A stretch of 64,000 bases of DNA from Prochloron didemni P4-Papua_New_Guinea (lineage in GTDB: Bacteria > Cyanobacteriota > Cyanobacteriia > Cyanobacteriales > Prochloraceae). Below the pieces are notes generated by a model. It saw nothing but the letters and a program-made list of their open reading frames with translations, searched no databases and was not told the origin of the DNA. This document shows, one piece after another, positions 2,535 through 56,933 of this stretch (positions are counted from its first letter, which is position 1; every line of letters starts with the position of its first letter). Made by a program: the position numbers and the translations under genes. The stretch is from the NCBI GenBank assembly GCA_000252485.1, contig JH610785.1, positions 164-64,163 of the forward strand. The letters are read 5' to 3'.

Positions 2535-3668
2535 ATGACCGAATCGTCCCTGGTGGAGGAGTGTAGAAAATTGGAAACTATTATGTCGCAAGAACTGGAA
2601 AAGGGCAAAGTACAAAGAAACCAGTCCAGACCGATCCGCATTGGCGTTATCGGGGTTGGCAATATGGGACAGCATCATACCCGCGTACTCACCATGCTCA
2701 AAGATGTGGAGTTAGTTGGTGTTTCCGATATTAATATCGAACGGGGCCTAGAAATTGCCAGCAAATACCGGGTTCGCTTCTTTGAAAATTATCTGGATCT
2801 CATTCCTTACGTGGACGCAATGTGTATTGCTGTACCCACTAGAGGGCATTATCAAGTGGGACTAGACTGTCTTCAACTCGGAGTTCATGCCTTAATTGAA
2901 AAACCCATTGCCGCCAGTATCACTGAGGCTGAATATCTAGTTAATGCTGCAGCAGAATCCAATTGCATTCTCCAAGTAGGCCATATAGAACGTTTTAATC
3001 CTGCTTTTCAAGAATTGAGCAAAGTGATGAAGACGGAAAAGTTATTGGCTTTGGAGGCCCATCGCATGAGTCCCTACTCCCAACGAGCCAATGATGTATC
3101 TGTAGTTCTGGATTTGATGATCCACGATATTGACTTGTTGCTGGAGTTAGCAGGATCCTCAGTGGTAAAATTAACTGCCAGCGGTAGTCAGGGTTCCAAT
3201 TCTCACAATCTGGATTATGTTACTGCGACTTTGGGTTTTGCCAACGGTACCATCGCCACTCTCACAGCTAGCAAAATAACCCACCGCAAAATTCGCCGTA
3301 TTGCCGCTCACTGCAAAAATTCTCTTACAGAAGCTGATTTTCTCAATAATGAAATTCTCATTCACCGCCAAACTACTGCTAATTATACTACAGATTACGG
3401 TCAAATACTCTATCGCCAAGATGGATTGATTGAAAAAGTTTATACCAGCAAGATTGAGCCGCTACATGCGGAGTTAGAACATTTTGTTAATTGCGTTCGG
3501 GGAGGAGAAAAACCTTCTGTAGGGGGAGAACAAGCTTTGAAGGCATTGCGTTTAGCCAGAGAGATTGAACGAATAGCTCAAGATGCTCTAGTGTGGCAGT
3601 CAGAATGGCAACATGAGGAATTAGATTCTCCCAAGATTAATTTTCCTGGTGAGGTAGTTAGAGTTTAA
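2535..3668 (+). CDS. Gfo/Idh/MocA family NAD(P)-dependent oxidoreductase
   Basis: N-terminal Rossmann motif IRIGVIGVGNMGQHH, EKP motif (LIEKPIA) and typical C-terminal alpha/beta domain. The start may instead be the internal Met at 2583. Confidence 0.85.
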   Translation: MTESSLVEECRKLETIMSQELEKGKVQRNQSRPIRIGVIGVGNMGQHHTRVLTMLKDVELVGVSDINIERGLEIASKYRVRFFENYLDLIPYVDAMCIAVPTRGHYQVGLDCLQLGVHALIEKPIAASITEAEYLVNAAAESNCILQVGHIERFNPAFQELSKVMKTEKLLALEAHRMSPYSQRANDVSVVLDLMIHDIDLLLELAGSSVVKLTASGSQGSNSHNLDYVTATLGFANGTIATLTASKITHRKIRRIAAHCKNSLTEADFLNNEILIHRQTTANYTTDYGQILYRQDGLIEKVYTSKIEPLHAELEHFVNCVRGGEKPSVGGEQALKALRLAREIERIAQDALVWQSEWQHEELDSPKINFPGEVVRV

Positions 3669-3812
3669 CTCGACCGAATCTGAAAATTGACAACAAGCTA
3701 AAACCCAAGAGGAATAAGGCGAGTATAGTAGGGGGCATAATAGCCCAGATGTTCGTCACGAATTAAATTTTGAATTTTGAATTTTGAATTTTGAATTCGA
3801 CGGTCGGGAGCT
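3667..3812. repeat. 146-bp dispersed repeat, copy A (AACTCGACCGAATCTGAAAATTGACAACAAGC...(ATTTTGAA)n TTCGACGGTCGGGAGCT)
   Basis: Same unit at 4799-4946 and 4955-5101 (direct) and at 20216-20360 (inverted). Confidence 0.85.
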
Positions 3813-4802
3813 ACCAATAAGTTGTTGAAGGGATTGAAAGATTGTTTCGCTGACTAATTCATTGCCTAAATTATTCAGATGAATGTGGTCTCGATATAAT
3901 TTGTGTGGGTCTTCTACAATTTGAAACAAGGGGAGAAAATCCAGATAGGGAATGGATTCTGTCTCTGTAAATTGAGTTAGTTCCATCCTCGCTTTTAATT
4001 CGTAATCCCGAGGTCCGGTTTCTGCCAGTTCTCGTTTTAAAGGAGTTAGAGCGAGGATTAATTTAGCTTTTTGGCTAGTGGCGTGCTGCGAAGCAGATCC
4101 CTGCGGGATCGCCTTAATTTCTTCTATTGCTGCTAAATTAAACCCTACGGGATCTTTTTGATATCCCTTTGGCTCTGCGCTCTTTTCAGCCTTTACTTTG
4201 GCGGTTTTTGGTTTTGCTTTCCTAGTCTGGAAGTAGTACTGATAAATTTCTCCTAAAGCTGAGTTAGGTTTGCGATCTGGATAATTGCGATCGCGTCCTA
4301 CTGGTCCGGAAGTAGGAGCTTTAGCAAACAAATCATCAGTATTGAGTAGTAATACGATTACTTGGGATTGAAAAGTACCAAAACGTTGAAGGTAAGCCAA
4401 CTCATTGTGGGGCCCCCAGGAATTAGCGGAGGCGTTGAGAACCTCTACATTGGTGTTTAATTTAGATGATAATTTAGCTTGGATTAAATTAGAAATAATC
4501 TCATCTTGAGCTGTCCACCAACCCCCATTGGCAAGAGAATCGCCTAACAGTAATATTCTCAAAGTAAAATCAGGCTTTTCAGGAGCGATCGGGTTACTAC
4601 GCATGGAATATTGATTAATAGTAATCTTATTGCCAAAGCGACGAACTTCCTGATTTGGTGCTAACAAATAACCAATTTTTTCATCGGCAATATAAATTAG
4701 TGGATTGCCCAAGCCAAAAACTAATCTCAATCCCACTTCTAAGATAACTAAAAGGGTGACAAAAACCACCAAAATCGCCAGCAATATTTTCATCTGTATC
4801 AA
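3756..4802 (-). CDS. SGNH/GDSL-type hydrolase family protein with N-terminal membrane anchor
   Basis: N-terminal TM helix, block I LLLGDSLANGG and a late DHIHLN block. The last ~18 codons (..SNSKFKIQNSKFNS) are encoded by repeat copy A. Confidence 0.7.
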   Translation of the reverse strand: MIQMKILLAILVVFVTLLVILEVGLRLVFGLGNPLIYIADEKIGYLLAPNQEVRRFGNKITINQYSMRSNPIAPEKPDFTLRILLLGDSLANGGWWTAQDEIISNLIQAKLSSKLNTNVEVLNASANSWGPHNELAYLQRFGTFQSQVIVLLLNTDDLFAKAPTSGPVGRDRNYPDRKPNSALGEIYQYYFQTRKAKPKTAKVKAEKSAEPKGYQKDPVGFNLAAIEEIKAIPQGSASQHATSQKAKLILALTPLKRELAETGPRDYELKARMELTQFTETESIPYLDFLPLFQIVEDPHKLYRDHIHLNNLGNELVSETIFQSLQQLIGSSRPSNSKFKIQNSKFNS

Positions 4803-5101
4803 CTCGACCGAATCTTGAAATTGACAACAAGCTAAAACCCAAGAGGAATAAGGCTTTTCTAGTTTCTGCCATTTTTTGCGGAGACATTCGCCACGAATTA
4901 AATTTTGAATTTTGAATTTTTAATTTTGAATTCGACGGAAGGAGCTATTAACTATCAACTCGACCGAATCTGAAAATTGAGAACAAGCTAAGAACCAAGA
5001 GGAACAATGCGAGTCTAGTTTCTGCCATTTTTCGGGTCGCATTCGTCAATTGTGAATTTTTAATTTTGAATTTTTAATTTTGAATTCGACGGTCGGGAGC
5101 T
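4799..5101. repeat. 146-bp dispersed repeat, copies B and C in tandem
   Basis: 4799-4946 and 4955-5101 align with 3667-3812. Copy B starts 3 nt inside the start codon region of the SGNH gene. Confidence 0.85.
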
Positions 5102-16635: not shown

Positions 16636-16707
16636 GGGTCGCTAACTCAACGGTAGAGTATCCGGCTTTTAACCGGCAAGTTCTGGGTTCGAATCCCAGG
16701 CGACCCA
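16636..16707 (+). tRNA. tRNA-Lys (anticodon UUU)
   Basis: Full cloverleaf checked by hand. Acceptor GGGTCGC/GCGACCC, D arm ACTC..GAGT, anticodon loop CTTTTAA, T arm CTGGG-TTCGAAT-CCCAG and discriminator A. CCA is not encoded. Confidence 0.9.
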
Positions 16708-16774
16708 CTTTTTGGTTATTTGTTATTTGTTTTTGGTTGTTTGAACTACAGGGCAGCTGATGAACTGCGCCGAG

Positions 16775-17236
16775 TTTTTCAACGTAAAGAAATATTACAA
16801 ACTCTTGAGGTAGATAGCAGTTTCTACTATAGAATTAAGAAGTGGGCTGCCGGAGTAAGACCCCAGCTTTTCCCAGTATAACCAATCCCAGTATAATCAT
16901 GAATACAGCAAAAGCGCACTGTCGCACGGACCGCAAGTTTTCGGCTTTCCACGAATCTTTGATATCCAAGAATCCAAATCGGGATTTTGCACTCAAGCCT
17001 ACAACCAGGCAATTTTTTCAATGTAAAGAAATATTACAAACTCTTGAGGTAGATAGGAGTTTCTACTATATAATAGTAAGTGAGCTGCCGGGGAAAAACC
17101 CCAGCTGTTCAAAAACAGAATAACCCCAGTATAACCATGAATACCGCAAAAGCGCACTGTCGCACGGACCGCAAGTTTTCGGCTTTCCACGAATCTTTGA
17201 TATCCAAGAATCCAAATCGGGATTTTGCACTCAAGC
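16775..17236. repeat. two ~223-bp direct repeats (16775-16998, 17014-17236) separated by a 15-nt spacer
   Basis: The 5' ~55 nt and 3' ~110 nt are almost identical and the central ~60 nt are diverged. Both strands show repeat-generated ORFs. Confidence 0.9.
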
Positions 17237-17246
17237 ATTTGTTCTT

Positions 17247-17533
17247 AAAAGATAAGAAGATTAATTGTACTTGTCGCGCATATGGGGAAGTCAGCACCCC
17301 GCTCTGAAGAGGCGGGGCTTCGTGCCTCCCTCCTAGGATAGCTGACCAGTCTAAGTTCTCTTTATGGGGACTACGTTTTTTGAGTCACGACACCCACGAA
17401 TGCGTCGCTAGTTTATGGCCCTGTCGCTTGTTGTTAAACAGCTTTACGAGGGGTAAGGCAGTGCAGCAAGCTTAACAAGCTCTTAAAACATTGACGAAGC
17501 GAACCTAACCCTAGCAATAGGAGTATTCAAATT
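17247..17533 (+). ncRNA. candidate IscB omega-RNA (guide plus scaffold); boundaries not determined
   Basis: ORF-free gap directly upstream of iscB and co-oriented with it. Nested stems are readable by eye: GTCAGC 17290-17295 / GCTGAC 17341-17346 enclosing CCCCGC 17297-17302 / GCGGGG 17312-17317, and AGCTT/AAGCT at 17469-17481. The position matches where IscB omega-RNAs are encoded. Confidence 0.45.
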
Positions 17534-18817
17534 ATGCGTGTATTTGTCTTAGATAAAAACCGAAAACCACTAGACCCATGTCATCCTGCTAAAGCAAGAA
17601 AATTGTTGAAGTTAGGAAGGGCAAGGGTGCTTAGAAGGTACCCATTTACCATCATCATCAAAGACTTGGAGGTAGAGAATTGCGTCACTCATGACCATCA
17701 ACTAAAAATAGACCCAGGGGCTAAAACAACAGGGCTTGCAATTGTTCAAGGTGATAGAGTTATTTGGGGGGCTGAACTAACTCATAGAGGCGAACATATC
17801 AGAGAAGCTTTAACCTCTAGGAGACAGCTTAGACGTTCTCGTCGTAACCGTAAAACTCGGTATCGTAAGCCTAGATTTCTTAACAGGACTCGCCCCAAAG
17901 GTTGGTTGCCTCCTAGTCTAATGTCGCGGGTTCATAATATTTTGACTTGGGTCAAGAAACTGATTAAACTTTGTCCAGTAACTGGTATTTCCCAAGAGCT
18001 AGTGAGGTTTGATACCCAGAAGATGCTAAATCCTGAAATCTCTGGGATTGAATACCAACAAGGGACTTTGTATGGCTATGAGTTGCGAGAATATCTTTTA
18101 GAAAAATGGAAGAGAACTTGTGCTTATTGCGGTGCAAAAAATACTAGGCTAGAGATTGAGCATATCAAGCCAAGGTCTAAGGGTGGAAGCAATAGGGTCT
18201 CTAACTTGACCATTGCTTGCCATGATTGTAATCAAGCTAAAGGAAATCTTGAAATAGAAGAATTTCTATCAAGTAAACCCAATATTCTCAAGCGTATTCT
18301 ATCGCAAGCAAAAAAACCATTAGCAGATGCAGCAGCAGTTAATGTAACTCGGTGGAAGTTGCAAGACGAACTAAAGTTAATCGGACTACCAGTTGAAGTA
18401 GGTTCAGGTGGTTTAACTAAATACAATCGTTGCCGCCAAAATTTACCAAAAACTCATTGGCTGGATGCTGCAAATGTCGGGAAGGTTGAGACGTTATACA
18501 TTGAAGATTATCAGCCCTTATTGATAACAGCTAAGGGGCATGGAACCAGACAAATTTGTAGAACAGACAAATTTGGGTTCCCAAGGCTTCATTGTTCTCC
18601 AAAAAAGATTCACAAAGGTTTCCAGACAGGAGATATTGTAAGAGCTGTCGTGACTAAAGGCAAAAAAATCGGAACTTACATGGGTAGAATAGCAACGAGA
18701 AAAACTGGTTCTTTTGATATTACTACTGCAAAAGGCAGGGTTTCAGGAATTAGCTATAAATATTGCCAAGCTATCCATCGCAAAGATGGATATAATTATC
18801 AATTTTACGGCGGATAA
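17534..18817 (+). CDS. iscB: IscB-type RNA-guided endonuclease (split RuvC with inserted HNH; IS200/IS605 OMEGA effector, Cas9 ancestor class)
   Basis: 427 aa. Motifs in order: PLMP-type N-domain (NRKPLDPCHPAKARKLLKLGRA); RuvC-I LKIDPGAKTTGLAIV (D60); Arg-rich bridge helix RRQLRRSRRNRKTRYRKPRF; RuvC-II ISQELVRFD (E155). Then HNH CAYCG..EIEHIKPRSKGGSNRVSNLTIACHDCNQAKG (two CxxC pairs, H210); RuvC-III THWLDAANVG (H308/D311); ~110-aa C-terminal domain. AGGAG lies 10 nt before the ATG. Confidence 0.85.
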   Translation: MRVFVLDKNRKPLDPCHPAKARKLLKLGRARVLRRYPFTIIIKDLEVENCVTHDHQLKIDPGAKTTGLAIVQGDRVIWGAELTHRGEHIREALTSRRQLRRSRRNRKTRYRKPRFLNRTRPKGWLPPSLMSRVHNILTWVKKLIKLCPVTGISQELVRFDTQKMLNPEISGIEYQQGTLYGYELREYLLEKWKRTCAYCGAKNTRLEIEHIKPRSKGGSNRVSNLTIACHDCNQAKGNLEIEEFLSSKPNILKRILSQAKKPLADAAAVNVTRWKLQDELKLIGLPVEVGSGGLTKYNRCRQNLPKTHWLDAANVGKVETLYIEDYQPLLITAKGHGTRQICRTDKFGFPRLHCSPKKIHKGFQTGDIVRAVVTKGKKIGTYMGRIATRKTGSFDITTAKGRVSGISYKYCQAIHRKDGYNYQFYGG

Positions 18818-18830
18818 ATCCGTGGTCACT

Positions 18831-18894
18831 GCACTTCGACTACCCTTCGACTTCGCTCAGGGCGAGCGCTCAGGGACCGCGAAGTCGAAGTGCC
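18831..18894. repeat. hairpin repeat of the CTTCGACTTCGC...GCGAAGTCGAAG family, immediately 3' of iscB
   Basis: 12-bp perfect stem (18845-18856 / 18879-18890). Family members at 23430-23500, 56375-56455 and 56770-56933. Confidence 0.8.
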
Positions 18895-19039
18895 GAGTCA
18901 ACTTCAAGATAGGTTATTGCGAGGTATGGAAAGAAAGAAAAGAGGCTGCGATCGCTTATAGTCACAAAGATTGGGATCGAGTCTCTGATGAAGAAGTGTT
19001 TGCAGCAGCAGAACAAGCTAAAAATTTGGGATTCGCAGT

Positions 19040-19942
19040 TTAATTAAAAGTGTTGGTTGATTCAGAAACAGCAATTTGATAGATATAACGGCGGGAATGA
19101 GAGGTTATTTGGGCTAGCTGTCGGCTGGCTTGAGATTTGCTTACTCCTTGATTATATAATTCCTGCAATTGCTCTTTAATTTCTGCTTCTGAGAGGGTGG
19201 GAAGGGATAAATTAGCCGCTCCATCAACCACGAGGGTAAATTCCCCTTTCGGTTGTTTTTTCCCTTCATACAAGGCTATAGCTTGGCTAATTTGACCCCG
19301 CCAAAATTCTTCGTGCAGTTTAGTTAATTCCCGCGCCAACACAATAAATCTATTTTGCCCCAAAACTGTCCCTAAATCCTTCAAGGTTTGTAACAAGCGG
19401 TGGGGTGCTTCGTAGAAGATTAAAGTGCGAGTTTCTTCTTGTATTGCTTCCAAACGCAATTTTCTCTCTCGATTCTTGGTGGGGAGAAAACCTTCAAAGA
19501 TAAAGCGATCGCACGGCCTACCGGATCCCACCAAAGCAGTTATAGCAGCAGTTACACCGGGTATAGGTACTACTGTAATTTCCGCTGCGATACAAGCCTT
19601 AACGAGATGATAGCCAGGGTCAGAAATAGAAGGCATTCCCGCATCTGTTACGAGGGCGATCGCCTTTCCGAATTGCAACAAAGCTAACAACTCTTCTTCC
19701 CTTTCACAACGATTGTGTTGGTGATAGCTTATTTGTGGGGTGGTAATTTGAAAATGCTGCAATAACTTTCCCGTATGACGGGTATCTTCTGCAGCAATTA
19801 AATCTACTTGCTGCAAAGTATTTACTGCTCTAAAAGTGATATCCTCTAAGTTGCCAATAGGAGTTCCTACTATATATAACTTTCCTTGTTGTTGGTTATT
19901 TGTTGTTTGTTGTTTGTTGTTTGTTGTTGGTTGTTTGTCCAT
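19040..19942 (-). CDS. rsmI: 16S rRNA (cytidine1402-2'-O)-methyltransferase RsmI
   Basis: LYIVGTPIGNLEDITFRAVNTLQQVDLIAAEDTRHTGKLL is the canonical RsmI N-terminus. The only in-frame start lies inside a heptamer array and adds MDKQPTTNNKQQTTNNQQQGK. Confidence 0.85.
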   Translation of the reverse strand: MDKQPTTNNKQQTTNNQQQGKLYIVGTPIGNLEDITFRAVNTLQQVDLIAAEDTRHTGKLLQHFQITTPQISYHQHNRCEREEELLALLQFGKAIALVTDAGMPSISDPGYHLVKACIAAEITVVPIPGVTAAITALVGSGRPCDRFIFEGFLPTKNRERKLRLEAIQEETRTLIFYEAPHRLLQTLKDLGTVLGQNRFIVLARELTKLHEEFWRGQISQAIALYEGKKQPKGEFTLVVDGAANLSLPTLSEAEIKEQLQELYNQGVSKSQASRQLAQITSHSRRYIYQIAVSESTNTFN

Positions 19943-19950
19943 TTACTAAT

Positions 19951-20046
19951 TGTTTATTGTTCATTGTTCATTGTTCATTGTTCATTGTTCATTGTTCATT
20001 GTTCATTGTTCATTGTTCATTGTTCATTGTTCATTGTTCATTGTTC
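19951..20046. repeat. tandem heptamer array (TTGTTCA)n, ~13 copies
   Basis: Read directly. Contiguous with the (TTGTTTG)-type array at 19876-19935 that enters the rsmI 5' end. Confidence 0.95.
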
Positions 20047-20215
20047 TAAGAGTTTAACCGATGTCATAATAGAGATAATTGCTGTTATTAACGCTAAAAA
20101 ATAGTTGCTTGTACTGTTGATTAAACGTATAATAGTGTATAATTTAAACTGGTTTGCCCACATTAGTCTTAGCCTCTCATCTTGAAAATAAAATTTATAG
20201 CAGTTGACAGTTGAT

Positions 20216-23390: not shown

Positions 23391-23648
23391 TAAGTAGAGT
23401 TAAAAGTGCTAAATACACCGTGGGATAGCCCCCCTTCGGCTACCCTTCGACTTCGCGGTCCCTGAGCGAAGTCGAAGGGCAGGGCAAGCGCTCAGGGCAA
23501 GTCTGGGCTGTCCGTTTTATATGACCCAGATTAATTTTCCCAAGATGTTGCATTTTTTTTCACTAGATGATAATATGTAATCGTGGGAAAAGGTGCGGAC
23601 ATATATATATATTATTTTCTTGGAACTACTAGATTATTTTGAAACAAC

Positions 23649-32102: not shown

Positions 32103-32343
32103 ATTTTTGATAGTTGATAGTTGATAGTTGATAGTTGATAGTTGATAGTTGACAGTTAATACAGCAACCGGTTGGTTGCCCTCTCTTATAGCAATCCCCA
32201 GGACAATTGCTATAACTATTCTCTTTAAACTCTAAGTATATGTTAGAGTGTTAGTGTATCTATGAGAATAATCAATTTCTACAATACTAATGAGCTTTTA
32301 GCTAACGACCATATATCTAATCCCTCGTTCACTACTATAAGCC

Positions 32344-33558: not shown

Positions 33559-34371
33559 ATGGGCAAACGCAAGAGACAGGTTTACTCAGAAGAGCTGAAT
33601 ATTTGGCCATCTTTCACCGACTTAATGGCCAATGCTTTTATGATTCTCAGCTTATTTTTACTTCTGGCGTTATTTAAATCCTTATTCTTAAAATACACTG
33701 CGGATGAAACGGAAGAGGATTTAATCGCATTGCAGCAAGAAGTAACCGGACTGCAAAATCAGTTGCAACAAAGAACTAACCGAGTGACTCAGTTGGAAAG
33801 GGAACGAGGAAGTTTACGCGATCAATTACAGCAAAATCGCAATCAAGTCAATCAATTACAATCGGAAGTACAGAGATTAAAATCAGCTCCCCCAGTAGTG
33901 GTAATTGAAAATTCCGGGGAATATCAATTTGAATCCGGTAGTGCAGAATTACCCAACCAACTTAAGAGTTATATTGCCACGGACTTAGTGGGAAGAATTG
34001 AAGCCATTACTCGATCCAGAAATATCTATGTAGTAGAAATAATCGGTCATACTGACGGTCAAATTAATAACACTAGGAGTAACTTAGATTCTGCCTTAGA
34101 AGAAGTAGCCAGCGGCAGAAAACCAGTTAATATTCTTAGAGCTGGTTCTAATGCGGACTTGGGTTTAATGCGGGCTTTAGAAGTAGCAAAAGAGTTGCAG
34201 GAAATCCAGAAAACTGGAAGGTTGGCGGGATTGGAATTTCGCGCCTATTCTGCAGCTCAATTACTGTTACCTAACGGTAATTTTGCCCCTGTGGATCGCA
34301 ATCCAGATAAGAATAGAAGAAGAATTGAAATCAGGTTCTCGCCTTTGGGAGAAGCAGAAACTATTAGGTAG
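33559..34371 (+). CDS. MotB/OmpA-type protein (TM with conserved Asp, coiled coil, OmpA-like peptidoglycan-binding domain)
   Basis: WPSFTDLMANAFMIL (MotB-type TM with Asp), an LQ-rich coiled coil, and FESGSAEL...IIGHTDG....N..LGLMRALEV...L....RRRIEIRF. Confidence 0.7.
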   Translation: MGKRKRQVYSEELNIWPSFTDLMANAFMILSLFLLLALFKSLFLKYTADETEEDLIALQQEVTGLQNQLQQRTNRVTQLERERGSLRDQLQQNRNQVNQLQSEVQRLKSAPPVVVIENSGEYQFESGSAELPNQLKSYIATDLVGRIEAITRSRNIYVVEIIGHTDGQINNTRSNLDSALEEVASGRKPVNILRAGSNADLGLMRALEVAKELQEIQKTGRLAGLEFRAYSAAQLLLPNGNFAPVDRNPDKNRRRIEIRFSPLGEAETIR

Positions 34372-34431
34372 TTGTTGGTTGTTGGTTGTTGGTTATTTGT
34401 TATTTGTTATTTGTTATTTTTTGTTTGTTCG
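34371..34431. repeat. heptamer array (TTGTTGG/TTATTTG)n
   Basis: Read directly; begins at the stop codon of the MotB-like gene. Confidence 0.9.
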
Positions 34432-34476
34432 TTAATTTAATATTATACATTCAATCATCCGGTAGTTTGTTTTTGA

Positions 34477-51369: not shown

Positions 51370-52394
51370 TCAAAAGCGAGCTAATAAATCTTCTCGGGAC
51401 GATTGGAGTAATAAAGGAGTAAATTCTTCCGGAGATAATGCTGTTAATGGCTCAATAATCCTGGAAATTTCCTCATCAATAGAACCAAAGCGAATTCTCA
51501 GTAGGCTTTCGATAGTAACACGACGTTCTCCTTGCTTTCCTCGTTCAATCCCCTGTTCCATACCTTGTTCCATACCTAGTTCCATCCCCTGTTCCATACC
51601 TCGTTCAATTCCTTGTTCTAGACCTTGTTTAATACCTTGTTCTAGACCTTGCTTAGTAGCATTTTCCAATTTTTCTAGATAAATAGTAGATAACTGCATA
51701 ACCAACTCCTTATCTTCTTGGTCTAATTGTTGTTTTTGTCTTGCGAACAATGAGATAGCATCTCATAAACTAATTCTAGTGCATTATTTCGCAGGGTACT
51801 TTCCAAAGGTAAAGATTTTAGTTCTTTAATTGCCTTTTCTTGAACCTTTCCCCTGCCCAAGATTCTCAACCAGAGAGTTTCTGGGGTATCAGGTAGTTGA
51901 TGAACTGCAATAACTCTCGCTTGCAGCATATCTGGCAGCAAGTAAACCCCTTTGGAATAGTTTTCTTCATCAGTAACTGCACAGGAGCGTTTGATTAATT
52001 CCTCGGAAAATGTGGGCGAGATAATCCAGAGAAATGGTAATTCTGTTTCTGAGATTGTTTTCTTTTTTCGCTTTGCTTCCCTTTCCATTTTATCACGAAA
52101 GTTACTTAATTTGCAGCAACAATTGACAATTTCTTTGGGACTGACTGCATTGCGAAATGGTTCAAACAAAGCAGAGCTGGCGGCTAGTTTTGCAGCCATT
52201 GTCATGGTGGGATTATTTGCTGGAGTTTTTCCCTTAGCCCTTCGACGACCCTCTGGGCTAGCAATGAATAAGACATCAGCCTGTTTTACTTCTGCTGCAA
52301 TGTCAACGCTGGTTTTAACTTCTCCTTCTCCGAAGAAGGCTAACAGTTCTGCCAGGTATTTTTTGGCGAATTGGTCATGTATGAAACGGGTCAT
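51370..52394 (-). pseudogene. Rpn-like / DUF4351-type protein gene, apparently split by a frameshift near 51723-51750
   Basis: N-terminal MTRFIHDQFAKKYLAELL...GEV..S......V.QADVLF is typical of a cyanobacterial putative-nuclease family. The second ORF carries (EQG.xxG)n repeats and a ..SLLRIRFG.IDEE......L..LSPEEF..LLL C-terminus. The two ORFs overlap by 28 nt. Confidence 0.45.
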
Positions 52395-52521
52395 TTTTCT
52401 TGGTTATTTGTTGTTTGTTGTTTGTTGTTTGTTGTTTGTTGTTTGTTGTTTGTTGTTTGTTGTTTGTTGTTTGTTGTTTGTTGTTTGTTATTTGTTGTTT
52501 GTTGTTTGTTGTTTGTTCACT
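52395..52521. repeat. tandem heptamer array (TTGTTTG)n, ~17 copies
   Basis: Read directly. Lies between the Rpn-like start codon and the intron 3' end. Confidence 0.95.
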
Positions 52522-52582
52522 GTAAAGAGGATTTCTCCGCTATCGGGTAAGTCAGCGGAGTTTCCCCCGCTTCGTCCCCTTA

Positions 52583-52616
52583 GAACCGTACAAGCAAGTC
52601 TCCCTGCATACGGCTC
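52583..52616 (-). ncRNA. group II intron domain V
   Basis: GAGCCGTATGCAGGGAGACTTGCTTGTACGGTTC: AGC triad, lower stem GAGCCGUAU/GUACGGUUC, a 2-nt bulge region and a GAGA (GNRA) tetraloop. Confidence 0.8.
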
Positions 52617-52627
52617 AACCAATTCCT

Positions 52628-54481
52628 TTAAGACTCAGTTATGTTCGCTACTTCTTTCCCATTCTTGCGGGTTTGTACCTTTTGGCTTTTGTTCCGCTTT
52701 CTGGAGGGTTTTGTTTTCCCGGCTCTCAATAATGACTGTATGTCAGGATTAGTAGCACCCAAGGCGTGTATGGACTGGTGGCAATCCTCGTGGAGGTATA
52801 TGAGATTATCAAATGTGTCTTTTCCACCAAGGTGTCTAGGTTGTATGTGATGAACGTGTAATCCATCTTTCTTACCCAGATTTTGTTTGCACCATGGGCA
52901 TTTATAATTTTGCCATGCTGCTAATTTATCCTTCCCTTTTGAGTATCTACCCATCGCTGTTGCTTCTTCATTTTTAGCAATGCGCTTTTCCCAGTATTCC
53001 TTTAATTGAGGGTCATCGGGACTGTTCTTGTATGCAACCAGCGTGTGACGTTGAATAGGTATCCAGGAAAGTTTTTCTACGTAAAGATGCTCTTTGTCTT
53101 TATCTCCAAACACCCATTTGTCTTTCCGGACTGGGCATAAACACCCGAAATATTTCTCCACGACCCACTCTTTTGACTTCTTAGGGTGTGTTCTCTTACC
53201 CCATTTCATCAGTTTCCACCAGATGTAACTATCTAGTTCGGAGAAGGTTTCTTTCGCAGCTACCCCCCGGTGATAGTTCCCCCACCCTCTAATCTTCGGG
53301 TTTAAGTCCCTTATCACCCTGGCGGCTGATGACCCTTTGAAACTTTTGAACAATTCCTTCAAACTTTCTTTGAATTTCCTTATGTTTTTCTCAGAGGGTT
53401 TGATAAGGGTGACCATGCCTGTTTTACGACTGGTAGTTTTGTATTTCCGAAAGTTCCATCCAAGAAAGTCAAAACCCTCTTTGAGGTGTCTGATTCTTGT
53501 TTTTTCTTCAGACAGTGCTAGTCCTTTCTCAGATAACCATTCCTCAATGATTGTCTTAGCTATCTCCGCATCTTCCTTGCTCTCCGTTAGGATCACAAAG
53601 TCATCAGCATAGCGAACCAGCGAGCGGCTACTGAGATTAGCCCAGAAGCCCCCGTCCTTATTTCGGGAATCTTTGTTCCATTTGTATTGAATCCCTAGGG
53701 CTTCTTCCATACCATGTAAGGCAATGTTAGCCAGTAGTGGGCTAATTATACCTCCCTGTCCTCGGCCAGCTTCAGTATCGTAGAATACATCCTTATGAAC
53801 GTATCCCGCTTTCAGCCATTGTTCCACTAGTTTCTTAGCGGGGAATTTTCCTATACTTTCCATTAGTGGTTTATGTGCTATATTGTCGAAACATCCTGAG
53901 ATGTCCGCGTCAAGCACCCACCATTTACGGTTGTTTTCTCCCCTAATGTTCAGGAATATCCTTTGTCTCGCGTCATGGGTACTTCTGCCGGGCCTGAAAC
54001 CGTATGAGGTGGCTTCAAATTGGGCTTCCCATTGAGGCTCTAATGCATTTTTGACCATGCCTTGTATGCATCGGTCAATCATGCTAGGTATTCCCAGGGG
54101 TCTTTTTTTCCCGTTGGTTTTTGGGATGTATACTCGTCGTGTTGGTATGGGTTTCCAGCATTTGTATTCTGTTAGGGCATCGACGACCCTGCCCCTGGCT
54201 TGTGGACCTAGTCTAGCCACTTTGTCAGTACCGGGGGTATTTTTACCTTTATTTAGCTGTGCTGCCTGCCTTACGGATATGAGTCTATTGGAGTAACTCT
54301 TGAGCATCAATTTTTGTAGGTTTTTCACCTTTTTCCATTCGGCGAACTGAGTCGCTCGGAAAATCCTTAATCTCAATTTCTCTACTTGCCGATAGGCTTT
54401 TGGCCAGTTGACTTTATGCCAATCGGTAGTTTGTTTTGTTACGATATCGTTCCTTTTTGGGTTCGATTCTATCTTTTCCAT
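52628..54481 (-). CDS. group II intron reverse transcriptase/maturase with C-terminal HNH endonuclease
   Basis: RT blocks (..RRVYIPKTNGKKRPLGIPS.., ..YADDFVIL..), a maturase X region (..RGWGNYH..) and HNH (CPWC...HVHHIQPRHLGGKDTFDNLIYLHEDCHQSIH). Confidence 0.9.
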   Translation of the reverse strand: MEKIESNPKRNDIVTKQTTDWHKVNWPKAYRQVEKLRLRIFRATQFAEWKKVKNLQKLMLKSYSNRLISVRQAAQLNKGKNTPGTDKVARLGPQARGRVVDALTEYKCWKPIPTRRVYIPKTNGKKRPLGIPSMIDRCIQGMVKNALEPQWEAQFEATSYGFRPGRSTHDARQRIFLNIRGENNRKWWVLDADISGCFDNIAHKPLMESIGKFPAKKLVEQWLKAGYVHKDVFYDTEAGRGQGGIISPLLANIALHGMEEALGIQYKWNKDSRNKDGGFWANLSSRSLVRYADDFVILTESKEDAEIAKTIIEEWLSEKGLALSEEKTRIRHLKEGFDFLGWNFRKYKTTSRKTGMVTLIKPSEKNIRKFKESLKELFKSFKGSSAARVIRDLNPKIRGWGNYHRGVAAKETFSELDSYIWWKLMKWGKRTHPKKSKEWVVEKYFGCLCPVRKDKWVFGDKDKEHLYVEKLSWIPIQRHTLVAYKNSPDDPQLKEYWEKRIAKNEEATAMGRYSKGKDKLAAWQNYKCPWCKQNLGKKDGLHVHHIQPRHLGGKDTFDNLIYLHEDCHQSIHALGATNPDIQSLLRAGKTKPSRKRNKSQKVQTRKNGKEVANITES

Positions 54482-56293: not shown

Positions 56294-56769
56294 AGTGATC
56301 GCGATCGCTCTCATTCGATCTATAGCAGTTGACAGTTGATAGTGGACAGTTGATAGTTATACAGCTTGCGGTGCAGTTCGACTACCCTTCGACTACGCGG
56401 TCCCTGAGCGTAGCCGAAGGGCAGGGCGAGCGCTCACTGACCGCGGAGCCGAACTGCTCTCCAAGGTTGCTCTGAGGAAATAGTAAACACTAAAAGGGCC
56501 AGTATATATAGCATTTCTCATACTTGTGAGGTACAGAAAAATAGGTTTGGAAGCAGTCCGCAGGTTTATAGGTGTACCTCATGACCAAGGAACCCTATAA
56601 TTTAAACTAAATCTGAATCAAAAAAATCTGAAAAAATGAATCACCCATCAATTTTATAGCGCTTCGCTCCTAAAGTGTCGTTACATGCTACATTTTGTAA
56701 ACAAGAAATGCTGCATCGGCTGCATCACCTTTGTACAAAGCGAAAGGGGCATTTTTCCTGCACGAACTC

Positions 56770-56933
56770 TTAATTGCCTGCACTGCCCTTCGACTTCGCG
56801 GTCACAGAGGGTCGCCGAAGTGCAGGGACCGCTACGCGAGAGTGTTCATTGTTAATTGCCTGCACTGCCCTTCGACTTCGCGGTCACAGAGGGTCGCCGA
56901 AGTGCAGGGACCGCTACGCGAGAGTGTTCATTG
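56770..56933. repeat. 2 x 82-bp tandem repeat containing CTTCGACTTCGCGGTC-type hairpin arms
   Basis: 56770-56851 and 56852-56933 are nearly identical. Located just 3' of the str operon. Confidence 0.9.

Follow-up and report, generated by a model that had tools for sequence, protein, structure and literature searches.

An intact IscB gene and its omega-RNA in a HEARO element of Prochloron didemni that appears to have lost one transposon end

Why does a complete gene for an RNA-guided nuclease stand without a transposase between tRNA-Lys and rsmI, and is it a mobile element, a gene kept by its host, or a relic? The question is raised by a 427-amino-acid (aa) open reading frame (ORF) of the IscB family in Prochloron didemni P4-Papua_New_Guinea. 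The ORF lies in a stretch of 64,000 nucleotides (nt) of contig JH610785.1, referred to here as the window, which corresponds to contig Ga0052241_100018 of the JGI sample 3300003093. A description made from the letters of the window without database searches (the sequence-only reading) had proposed a stand-alone IscB nuclease with a candidate omega-RNA, "non-autonomous or domesticated", next to tRNA-Lys. Our analysis indicates that the locus is very probably a non-autonomous element of the IS200/IS605 family, consisting of a HEARO RNA and iscB, which inserted into a host gene and is now truncated at one end and immobilised, and which is selfish and not adopted by the host. Coordinates refer to the window, unless they follow the name of a comparison locus (L and a number).

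The ORF encodes a full-length IscB

Profile searches, a PDB search, alignment and structure prediction together confirm the intact coding sequence at 17534-18817 on the forward strand, exactly where the sequence-only reading had placed it, as that of a full-length, genuine IscB RNA-guided nuclease. Among the profile hidden Markov models, Pfam RRXRR matches residues 3-177 (1e-75) and HNH residues 196-238 (1e-12), and the NCBIfam equivalog NF040563, guided_IscB ("RNA-guided endonuclease IscB"), covers residues 3-316 with 485 bits (cutoff, 175). All chains found by the PDB sequence search are of the IscB, IsrB or Cas9 type, with TbaIscB at 6e-46 and OgeuIscB at 2e-26, and homologues with 79% identity are already named "RNA-guided endonuclease IscB" by NCBI.

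The domains follow the order PLMP-type N-domain (here with the motif PLDP), RuvC-I, arginine-rich bridge helix, RuvC-II, HNH, RuvC-III and a C-terminal beta-rich, putative WED/TI region. In a residue-by-residue alignment, D60, E155, H210, H308 and D311 pair with D61, E193, H247, H340 and D343 of OgeuIscB, which are its RuvC and HNH catalytic residues (PMC9640706), in agreement with the assignment of all five in the sequence-only reading. Across 47 aligned homologues, no variation is seen in these five residues or in the four HNH cysteines that this reading had also picked out (C196, C199, C229 and C232). In the same alignment, L13 of the PLDP motif is invariant, and P12 and P15 are conserved at 90% or more.

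The AlphaFold2 model has a mean predicted local distance difference test (pLDDT) of 77 and a predicted template modelling score of 0.65. A Foldseek search of the PDB with this model places cryo-EM structures of IscB-omegaRNA-DNA complexes at the top (8csz, 7e-24; 9liq, 5e-23; 7xht, 4e-18), the alignments with the IscB chains running over about 507 columns, gaps counted. The C-terminal region shows eight predicted beta-strands at residues 329-415, with a pLDDT of 82-88 across most of residues 360-410, and does not yield a match to the TI domain at the sequence level.

Two neighbouring protein classes were considered and rejected. The HNH domain speaks against IsrB, whereas a type II CRISPR-Cas9 is contradicted by the size of 427 aa, by the lack of a CRISPR array in the 64 kb and by the low scores of the Cas9 and Cas9d models, both far under their cutoffs (21 versus 100 bits and 52 versus 375 bits, respectively).

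A HEARO omega-RNA precedes the gene

The ORF is preceded by 244 nt without a long ORF, and the covariance model of the Rfam family HEARO (RF02033) matches positions 17290-17509 on the forward strand with 156.8 bits (gathering score, 83) over the full model, from position 1 to position 211 of 211. HEARO is the omega-RNA of IscB (PMC9755519; Meers et al., bioRxiv 10.1101/2023.03.14.532601), and the covariance-model scan proposed in the sequence-only reading has thus returned a full-length member, on a par in score with the intact paralogue L086 (157.2 bits). The match represents the scaffold of the omega-RNA and begins right at the transposon boundary, which is the right end (RE) in TnpA terms. 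The whole of 17247-17533 had been proposed as omega-RNA, which holds for the HEARO scaffold, whereas 17247-17289 is a flank derived from the host gene. The richness of the region in G+C that had been noticed is present as a modest excess (0.50 versus 0.41-0.44 nearby).

The sequence-only reading had also considered that the gap might be a plain leader without conserved structure at homologous loci. A full-length HEARO is found upstream of iscB in all 15 related loci examined, and the RNAalifold consensus of 17 sequences contains 50 pairs, 35 of which show compensatory double changes, which argues for a conserved structure. The remaining bases before the start codon (17510-17533, forward strand) may be a 3' extension of the omega-RNA or the leader of iscB, as judged from RNAalifold and the sequence. 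Here, a small conserved hairpin at about 17511-17520 with a CUA/UAG stem overlaps the Shine-Dalgarno sequence GGAG (17520-17523), and each of its pairs (RNAalifold columns 358-367) is backed by 1-4 compensatory changes. Structure downstream of the RF02033 model was noted by Meers et al. (bioRxiv 10.1101/2023.03.14.532601).

A different arrangement is seen in the locus L001 of a Prochloron metagenome-assembled genome (MAG), where two tandem full-length HEARO genes (3293-3508 and 3759-3976, with 151 and 153 bits) stand before one iscB. Of the two, the first stands alone as an omega-RNA gene and has a different flank and guide of its own.

Guide and target-adjacent motif can be read from empty alleles

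Similarity to at least 80 iscB loci of other genomes, the nearest being from Prochloron MAGs and Moorena, begins sharply at 17290, at GTCAGCACCCCGC. The same sample holds at least three iscB copies with unrelated flanks, namely, the window copy, L086 and L094, and the flanks of the latter two, whose proteins are about 90-91% identical to the window IscB, diverge at the same base. Contigs from sister strains show the same neighbourhood free of iscB, with flanks that are 98% (L082), 97% (L098) and about 83% (L083) identical. The uninterrupted alleles of L082 and L098 share 98% identity with window positions 17240-17289, and L083 agrees with the guide at all 16 positions. The element boundary therefore coincides precisely with the first scaffold base, and the 16 nt of host-gene DNA directly 5' of it (17274-17289, forward strand), TCGCGCATATGGGGAA, are the guide segment of the omega-RNA, its length being taken as 16 nt by analogy with OgeuIscB.

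In L082 and L098 the empty site reads TGTCGCG(G/C)ATATGG(G/A)GAA and then ATGAGAAATG, with the boundary between the two, so that ATGAGA directly follows ...GGGGAA in L082 and ...GGAGAA in L098. In L083, the boundary lies between TGTCGCGCATATGGGGAA and ATCAGGAATG. Read from these alleles, the ancestral target-adjacent motif (TAM) was ATGAGA. At their distal termini, the intact paralogues share a conserved block, ...CCGAGTCAACTTCATCCGC-loop-GCGGTTTCCGTTTTCCCGAGAAATAGC, followed by a TAM-like motif, which is ATGAA in L086, L088 and L093 and ATGAG in L094-L096, and most of the more distant loci carry a hairpin CCTCCCCG...CGGGGTTTCC and then ATGA. The motif at the empty sites agrees with those after the intact ends, giving a TAM of ATGAR. 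The TAM of GstIscB is TTCAT, which is ATGAA in iscB orientation, and its omega-RNA abuts the RE, whereas the TAM abuts the left end (LE) (bioRxiv 10.1101/2023.03.14.532601). The guide, the TAM and the element ends, which the sequence-only reading had left open, are hence readable from the uninterrupted alleles and the intact paralogues.

The empty alleles do not match guide and TAM completely. L082 and L098 each depart from the guide at a single base, which in L098 is located four bases from the TAM, whereas the guide match of L083 is perfect but is followed by ATCAGG where ATGAGA is expected. A scan of metagenome contigs for the guide plus flank, TTGTCGCGSATATGGGGAA, gave four matches, all by chance and in unrelated contexts, and yielded no further occupied or empty alleles.

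The distal end is lost

Downstream of the stop codon, the bases ATCCG at 18818-18822 (forward strand) are the first of the distal, LE-side non-coding part; they are conserved in L086, L088, L093 and L094 and form, together with the stop codon region, a small hairpin CGGATAAATCCG. They are followed at 18823-18892 (forward strand) by a dispersed palindromic repeat of 70 nt, identified by paralogue comparison and inverted-repeat detection, which is nested in the distal non-coding region. The repeat is absent from the paralogue L093 and occurs in variable forms at the same site in L086, L088, L094, L095 and L096. Related copies lie away from any iscB at 23434-23479 and 56372-56445 of the window and at L082 328-389, and matches to its 16-nt core are found at 56788-56885. 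The sequence-only reading had correctly seen a hairpin of a dispersed repeat family here, but this hairpin is inside the element and not beyond its end.

Alignment with the intact paralogues L086, L088, L093 and L094 reveals a remnant of the distal end, ccgagtcaacttca, at 18893-18906 (forward strand). The sequence CCGAGTCAACTTCA runs from the palindromic repeat to 18906, where the alignment with the intact paralogues stops, so the element reaches about 18906 and not 18894, as had been assumed. After this position, the window lacks the terminal hairpin TCCGC...GCGGTTTCCGTTTTCCCGAGAAATAGC and the TAM, and the host gene resumes at a position corresponding to L082 6058, which in L082 lies 123 nt past the insertion point. 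The terminal hairpin (LE) and the TAM have therefore been deleted along with about 123 nt of the host gene. A search of the 64-kb window with the ends of at least 70 loci and a regular expression for the hairpin recovered no distal-end sequence, only chance matches of 13-18 nt, and the distal end is therefore truly absent from the window.

The dispersed GC-rich repeat family also includes a perfect 82-nt tandem duplicate at 56770-56933, and nested small palindromes in or next to the terminal hairpin recur in L009, L011, L012, L017, L047, L048, L052 and L094-L096. The sequence of the palindromes downstream of cyanobacterial iscB stop codons varies between genomes.

The insertion site is a degraded host gene

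The element is inserted in sense orientation inside a gene for a 241-aa hypothetical protein, located between tRNA-Lys and rsmI. An uninterrupted ORF of 241-242 aa spans the site in the sister strains, and the iscB insertion is absent from four related strains. The protein does not match any Pfam family even at an E value of 1 or less. Two fragments of the gene remain on the forward strand, a 5' fragment at 17137-17289 (alignment with L082) and a 3' fragment at 18907-19043 (alignment with L082 and L098).

Window positions 17048-17242 correspond to L082 6736-6541, 17240-17289 to L082 6231-6182, and 18906-21354 to L082 6058-3603 with 98% identity, the last segment being similarly conserved in L098. 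The host gene of the window accordingly lacks 309 nt (103 codons, in frame) of L082 6540-6232, with a junction at about 17240-17242 that shows a TGT microhomology. Furthermore, its 5' region is duplicated in tandem (16775-16998 and 17014-17236; about 238 bp; 90-97% identical). The duplicated unit comprises the upstream region and the first approximately 35 codons of the gene and is present as a single copy in L082, L083 and L098, and the two repeats were therefore rejected as additional RNA genes or transposon ends.

The gene for tRNA-Lys(UUU) lies at 16636-16708, about 580 nt from the element. The sequence-only reading had stressed this adjacency, and an integrase-style link would make the tRNA gene the attachment site. 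We reject this link, since tRNA-Lys is also present at the uninterrupted L083 locus and the insertion is within a protein-coding gene; the tRNA gene is therefore not an attachment site, and the adjacency reflects ancestral synteny.

All three copies of the same sample are co-oriented with the gene that they interrupt or follow, and the same bias was reported by Meers et al. (bioRxiv 10.1101/2023.03.14.532601). In the copy L094, iscB splits what appears to be a single AlbA_2 / HATPase_c_4 gene (1897-2277 and 3926-4981), again in sense orientation.

In two sister strains, a TnpB (OrfB_IS605) is situated directly upstream of the same host gene (L082 6769-8007 and L098 6772-8322, both on the reverse strand), beyond which homology with the window starts again, at 17048 of the latter. 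The interval between tRNA-Lys and rsmI is therefore a polymorphic landing zone, or hotspot, for IS605-type elements. A partial TnpB is also seen in L097, in the opposite orientation and without the host gene.

No transposase, TnpB or CRISPR array in the window

Y1_Tnp gives no match stronger than about 8e-6 to any of the 34 window ORFs with 90-260 aa, and neither a TnpB nor a CRISPR-like array was found in the 64 kb. The absence of TnpA and of a CRISPR array, as noticed in the sequence-only reading, is supported by these scans. Only about 1.5% of iscB genes are near tnpA (bioRxiv 10.1101/2023.03.14.532601), and the lack of tnpA is therefore normal for iscB. The term "non-autonomous" fits the locus well, whereas nothing supports "domesticated".

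The small ORFs include two XisH/XisI gene pairs and a fragment of a DDE_Tnp_1 transposase (1e-10). A group II intron catalytic domain (RF00029, 56.8 bits) at 52542-52618 on the reverse strand adjoins a 617-aa ORF (52628-54481, reverse strand), and a stretch overlapping this ORF (52706-52900, reverse strand) is weakly similar to the IscB HNH region in tblastn. A similar group II intron match lies at L082 8025-8103. Heptanucleotide tandem repeats of the TTGTTCA, TTGTTGT and TTGATAG types occur at 19865-20059, 34355-34443, 52380-52538 and 32107-32161, within intergenic regions or bordering them.

Immobilised element, relic or host-adopted nuclease

According to the published mechanism of the family, read-through from the host gene would produce the omega-RNA, which would bind IscB, and transcription from the 5' side of the host gene would supply the guide. 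The complex would cut a match to the guide that is followed by a TAM, either at the empty site or at the donor joint that TnpA excision leaves behind, and repair of the break from an occupied copy would retain the element or copy it in. The occupied site would be spared because its guide match is followed by GTCAG and not by ATGAR. With the TnpA-recognised distal end gone, the window copy could neither excise nor transpose even with TnpA supplied in trans, and it is probably no longer able to move. With both its nuclease and its RNA intact, it might remain able to cleave uninterrupted alleles entering the cell. On the sequence evidence, this IscB element is best read as selfish and recently immobilised.

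Several points weigh against this explanation. The fold of 17274-17533 as a single sequence is no more stable than that of shuffled sequences (z = -0.71), so that the claim of RNA structure rests on the covariance model and the covariation. Both the guide length of 16 nt and the 5' end of the RNA are assumptions by analogy, and the departure of the empty alleles from guide and TAM by 1-2 bases makes their efficient cleavage uncertain. The ratio of nonsynonymous to synonymous substitutions (dN/dS) of iscB versus four paralogues is 0.06-0.10, with an ORF without stops or frameshift, a sequence comparison that shows purifying selection on the iscB family but covers the history of the family and not that of this locus since its immobilisation and truncation. 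The putative activity of the window copy is deduced from the intactness of its sequence. Finally, the deletion junction may have arisen in a single event or in two; TTCAAGATA is also found 16 nt into the L082 host sequence.

The alternative that survives best is a silent relic, in which the time elapsed has simply been too short for the sequences to decay, and RNA and protein are either not made or not active. The heavy degradation of the host gene, with its 5' tandem duplication and the deletions of 309 and 123 nt, and the weakness of the promoter-like matches upstream are in line with such an outcome. We nevertheless regard it as unlikely, as the reading frame has acquired neither a stop nor a frameshift, the catalytic and zinc-binding residues are all kept, the HEARO score equals that of intact copies, and the element is still preceded, in the same orientation, by the duplicated 5' regions of the host gene together with the DNA upstream of them.

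A domesticated IscB, kept by the host as a nuclease or DNA binder with a fixed guide, which might exclude DNA carrying the intact 241-aa gene or serve in regulation, seems very improbable. The preservation of ORF and RNA despite the immobilisation could be taken in its favour, and the three uninterrupted alleles, each of which is at least one base off guide plus TAM, could be read as having escaped from cleavage. However, the guide is merely the flank of the insertion, as in any IscB element, the same sample contains multiple ordinary copies of this IscB subfamily, and the differences within the 22-nt site of the three empty alleles (1, 1 and 2 observed; 0.4, 0.7 and 3.7 expected) match the overall divergence. 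Moreover, the absence of the insertion from four related strains indicates that the insertion is young, so its intactness does not require selection. A related and similarly far-fetched idea is that the intact but immobilised pair may persist as an "allele killer" with a fixed guide, cutting the uninterrupted gene at TCGCGCATATGGGGAA followed by ATGAR. If this were true, the disrupted allele would be driven or locked in across Prochloron populations, and the single-base differences in the empty alleles would represent resistance.

Y1 transposases of the IS200/IS605 family recognise small hairpins, and a strong inverted repeat lies directly past the stop codon, as it does in L086 and L088; yet a fully mobilisable and merely variant element, with the hairpin at 18823-18892 as its functional TnpA-recognised end, is the least credible explanation of all and can hardly be upheld, as the intact paralogues carry after the nested repeat a conserved block of about 45 nt, TCCGC...GCGGTTTCC...CCCGAGA, and ATGAR, both of which the window lacks, L093 has no nested repeat yet retains the terminal block, about 123 nt of the host gene including the TAM are missing beside the element, and the nested repeat is found away from any iscB too.

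The immobilised, selfish HEARO/iscB element thus remains our preferred explanation. HEARO/IscB is a family already described, and the window locus is one more member, so that its novelty is lower than the sequence-only reading had held, although that reading identified the locus correctly and with care. The loss of one transposon end with an intact cargo is, judged by comparison with the paralogues, its only and mildly unusual feature.

Because family, RNA and mechanism have been described before, the scientific yield of the locus is small. It offers a clean natural illustration, in which occupied and empty alleles let guide, TAM and boundary be read from sequence, and it illustrates one way in which such elements die, with the TnpA-recognised end lost and nuclease and RNA intact. 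Being compact, at 427 aa, and having a simple TAM of the ATGAR type, this IscB could be considered in screens for genome editing, as one of thousands of such proteins.

Comparison with known systems

At the level of sequence, the locus combines the features of an IscB/OMEGA system, which are the split RuvC with HNH, RRXRR, the upstream omega-RNA and the guide derived from the flank. As an intact, mobilisable IS200/IS605 transposon it was rejected: the RE side is intact, and on the LE side the hairpin, the TAM and flanking DNA of about 123 nt are gone.

Type II-D Cas9d and other compact Cas9 proteins share the RuvC/HNH core, as seen in the match of the Cas9d model NF049971 to the HNH region (5e-14) and in weaker fold matches of 1e-10 to 4e-11. 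In contrast to Cas9, the window protein has no recognition (REC) lobe and only 427 aa, and its 64-kb surroundings contain no CRISPR array. Elements with TnpB and omega-RNA belong to the same transposon superfamily and follow the same homing logic, whereas TnpB has a RuvC only and its RNA is located at the 3' end of the tnpB gene.

OgeuIscB (PDB IDs 7XHT, 7UTN and 8CSZ) agrees with the window system in the domain order, the five catalytic residues, the fold and the upstream omega-RNA with a 5' guide, and the window TAM ATGAGA fits the OgeuIscB TAM NWRRNA (PMC12660989). The two differ in sequence, with about 22% identity, in length (427 versus 496 aa), in the N-terminal motif (PLDP versus PLMP) and in the lost distal end of the window copy.

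GstIscB from Geobacillus stearothermophilus (bioRxiv 10.1101/2023.03.14.532601) is likewise non-autonomous, with an omega-RNA bounded by the RE and a TAM at the LE, which in iscB orientation is ATGAA as after the intact paralogues, and it is also co-oriented with the upstream gene. It comes from another phylum, and, unlike in GstIscB, the end and the TAM of the window copy are deleted, so that the donor-joint targeting cycle of the GstIscB type cannot run at this locus.

A further close match is the description of the HEARO RNA with its ORF (RF02033), for which a reference effector, Ama-1-1, was placed in the IscB/HEARO phylogeny (PMC9755519). The window locus, with a full-length match of 157 bits followed by an HNH ORF, shows no essential difference from it and is a typical member.

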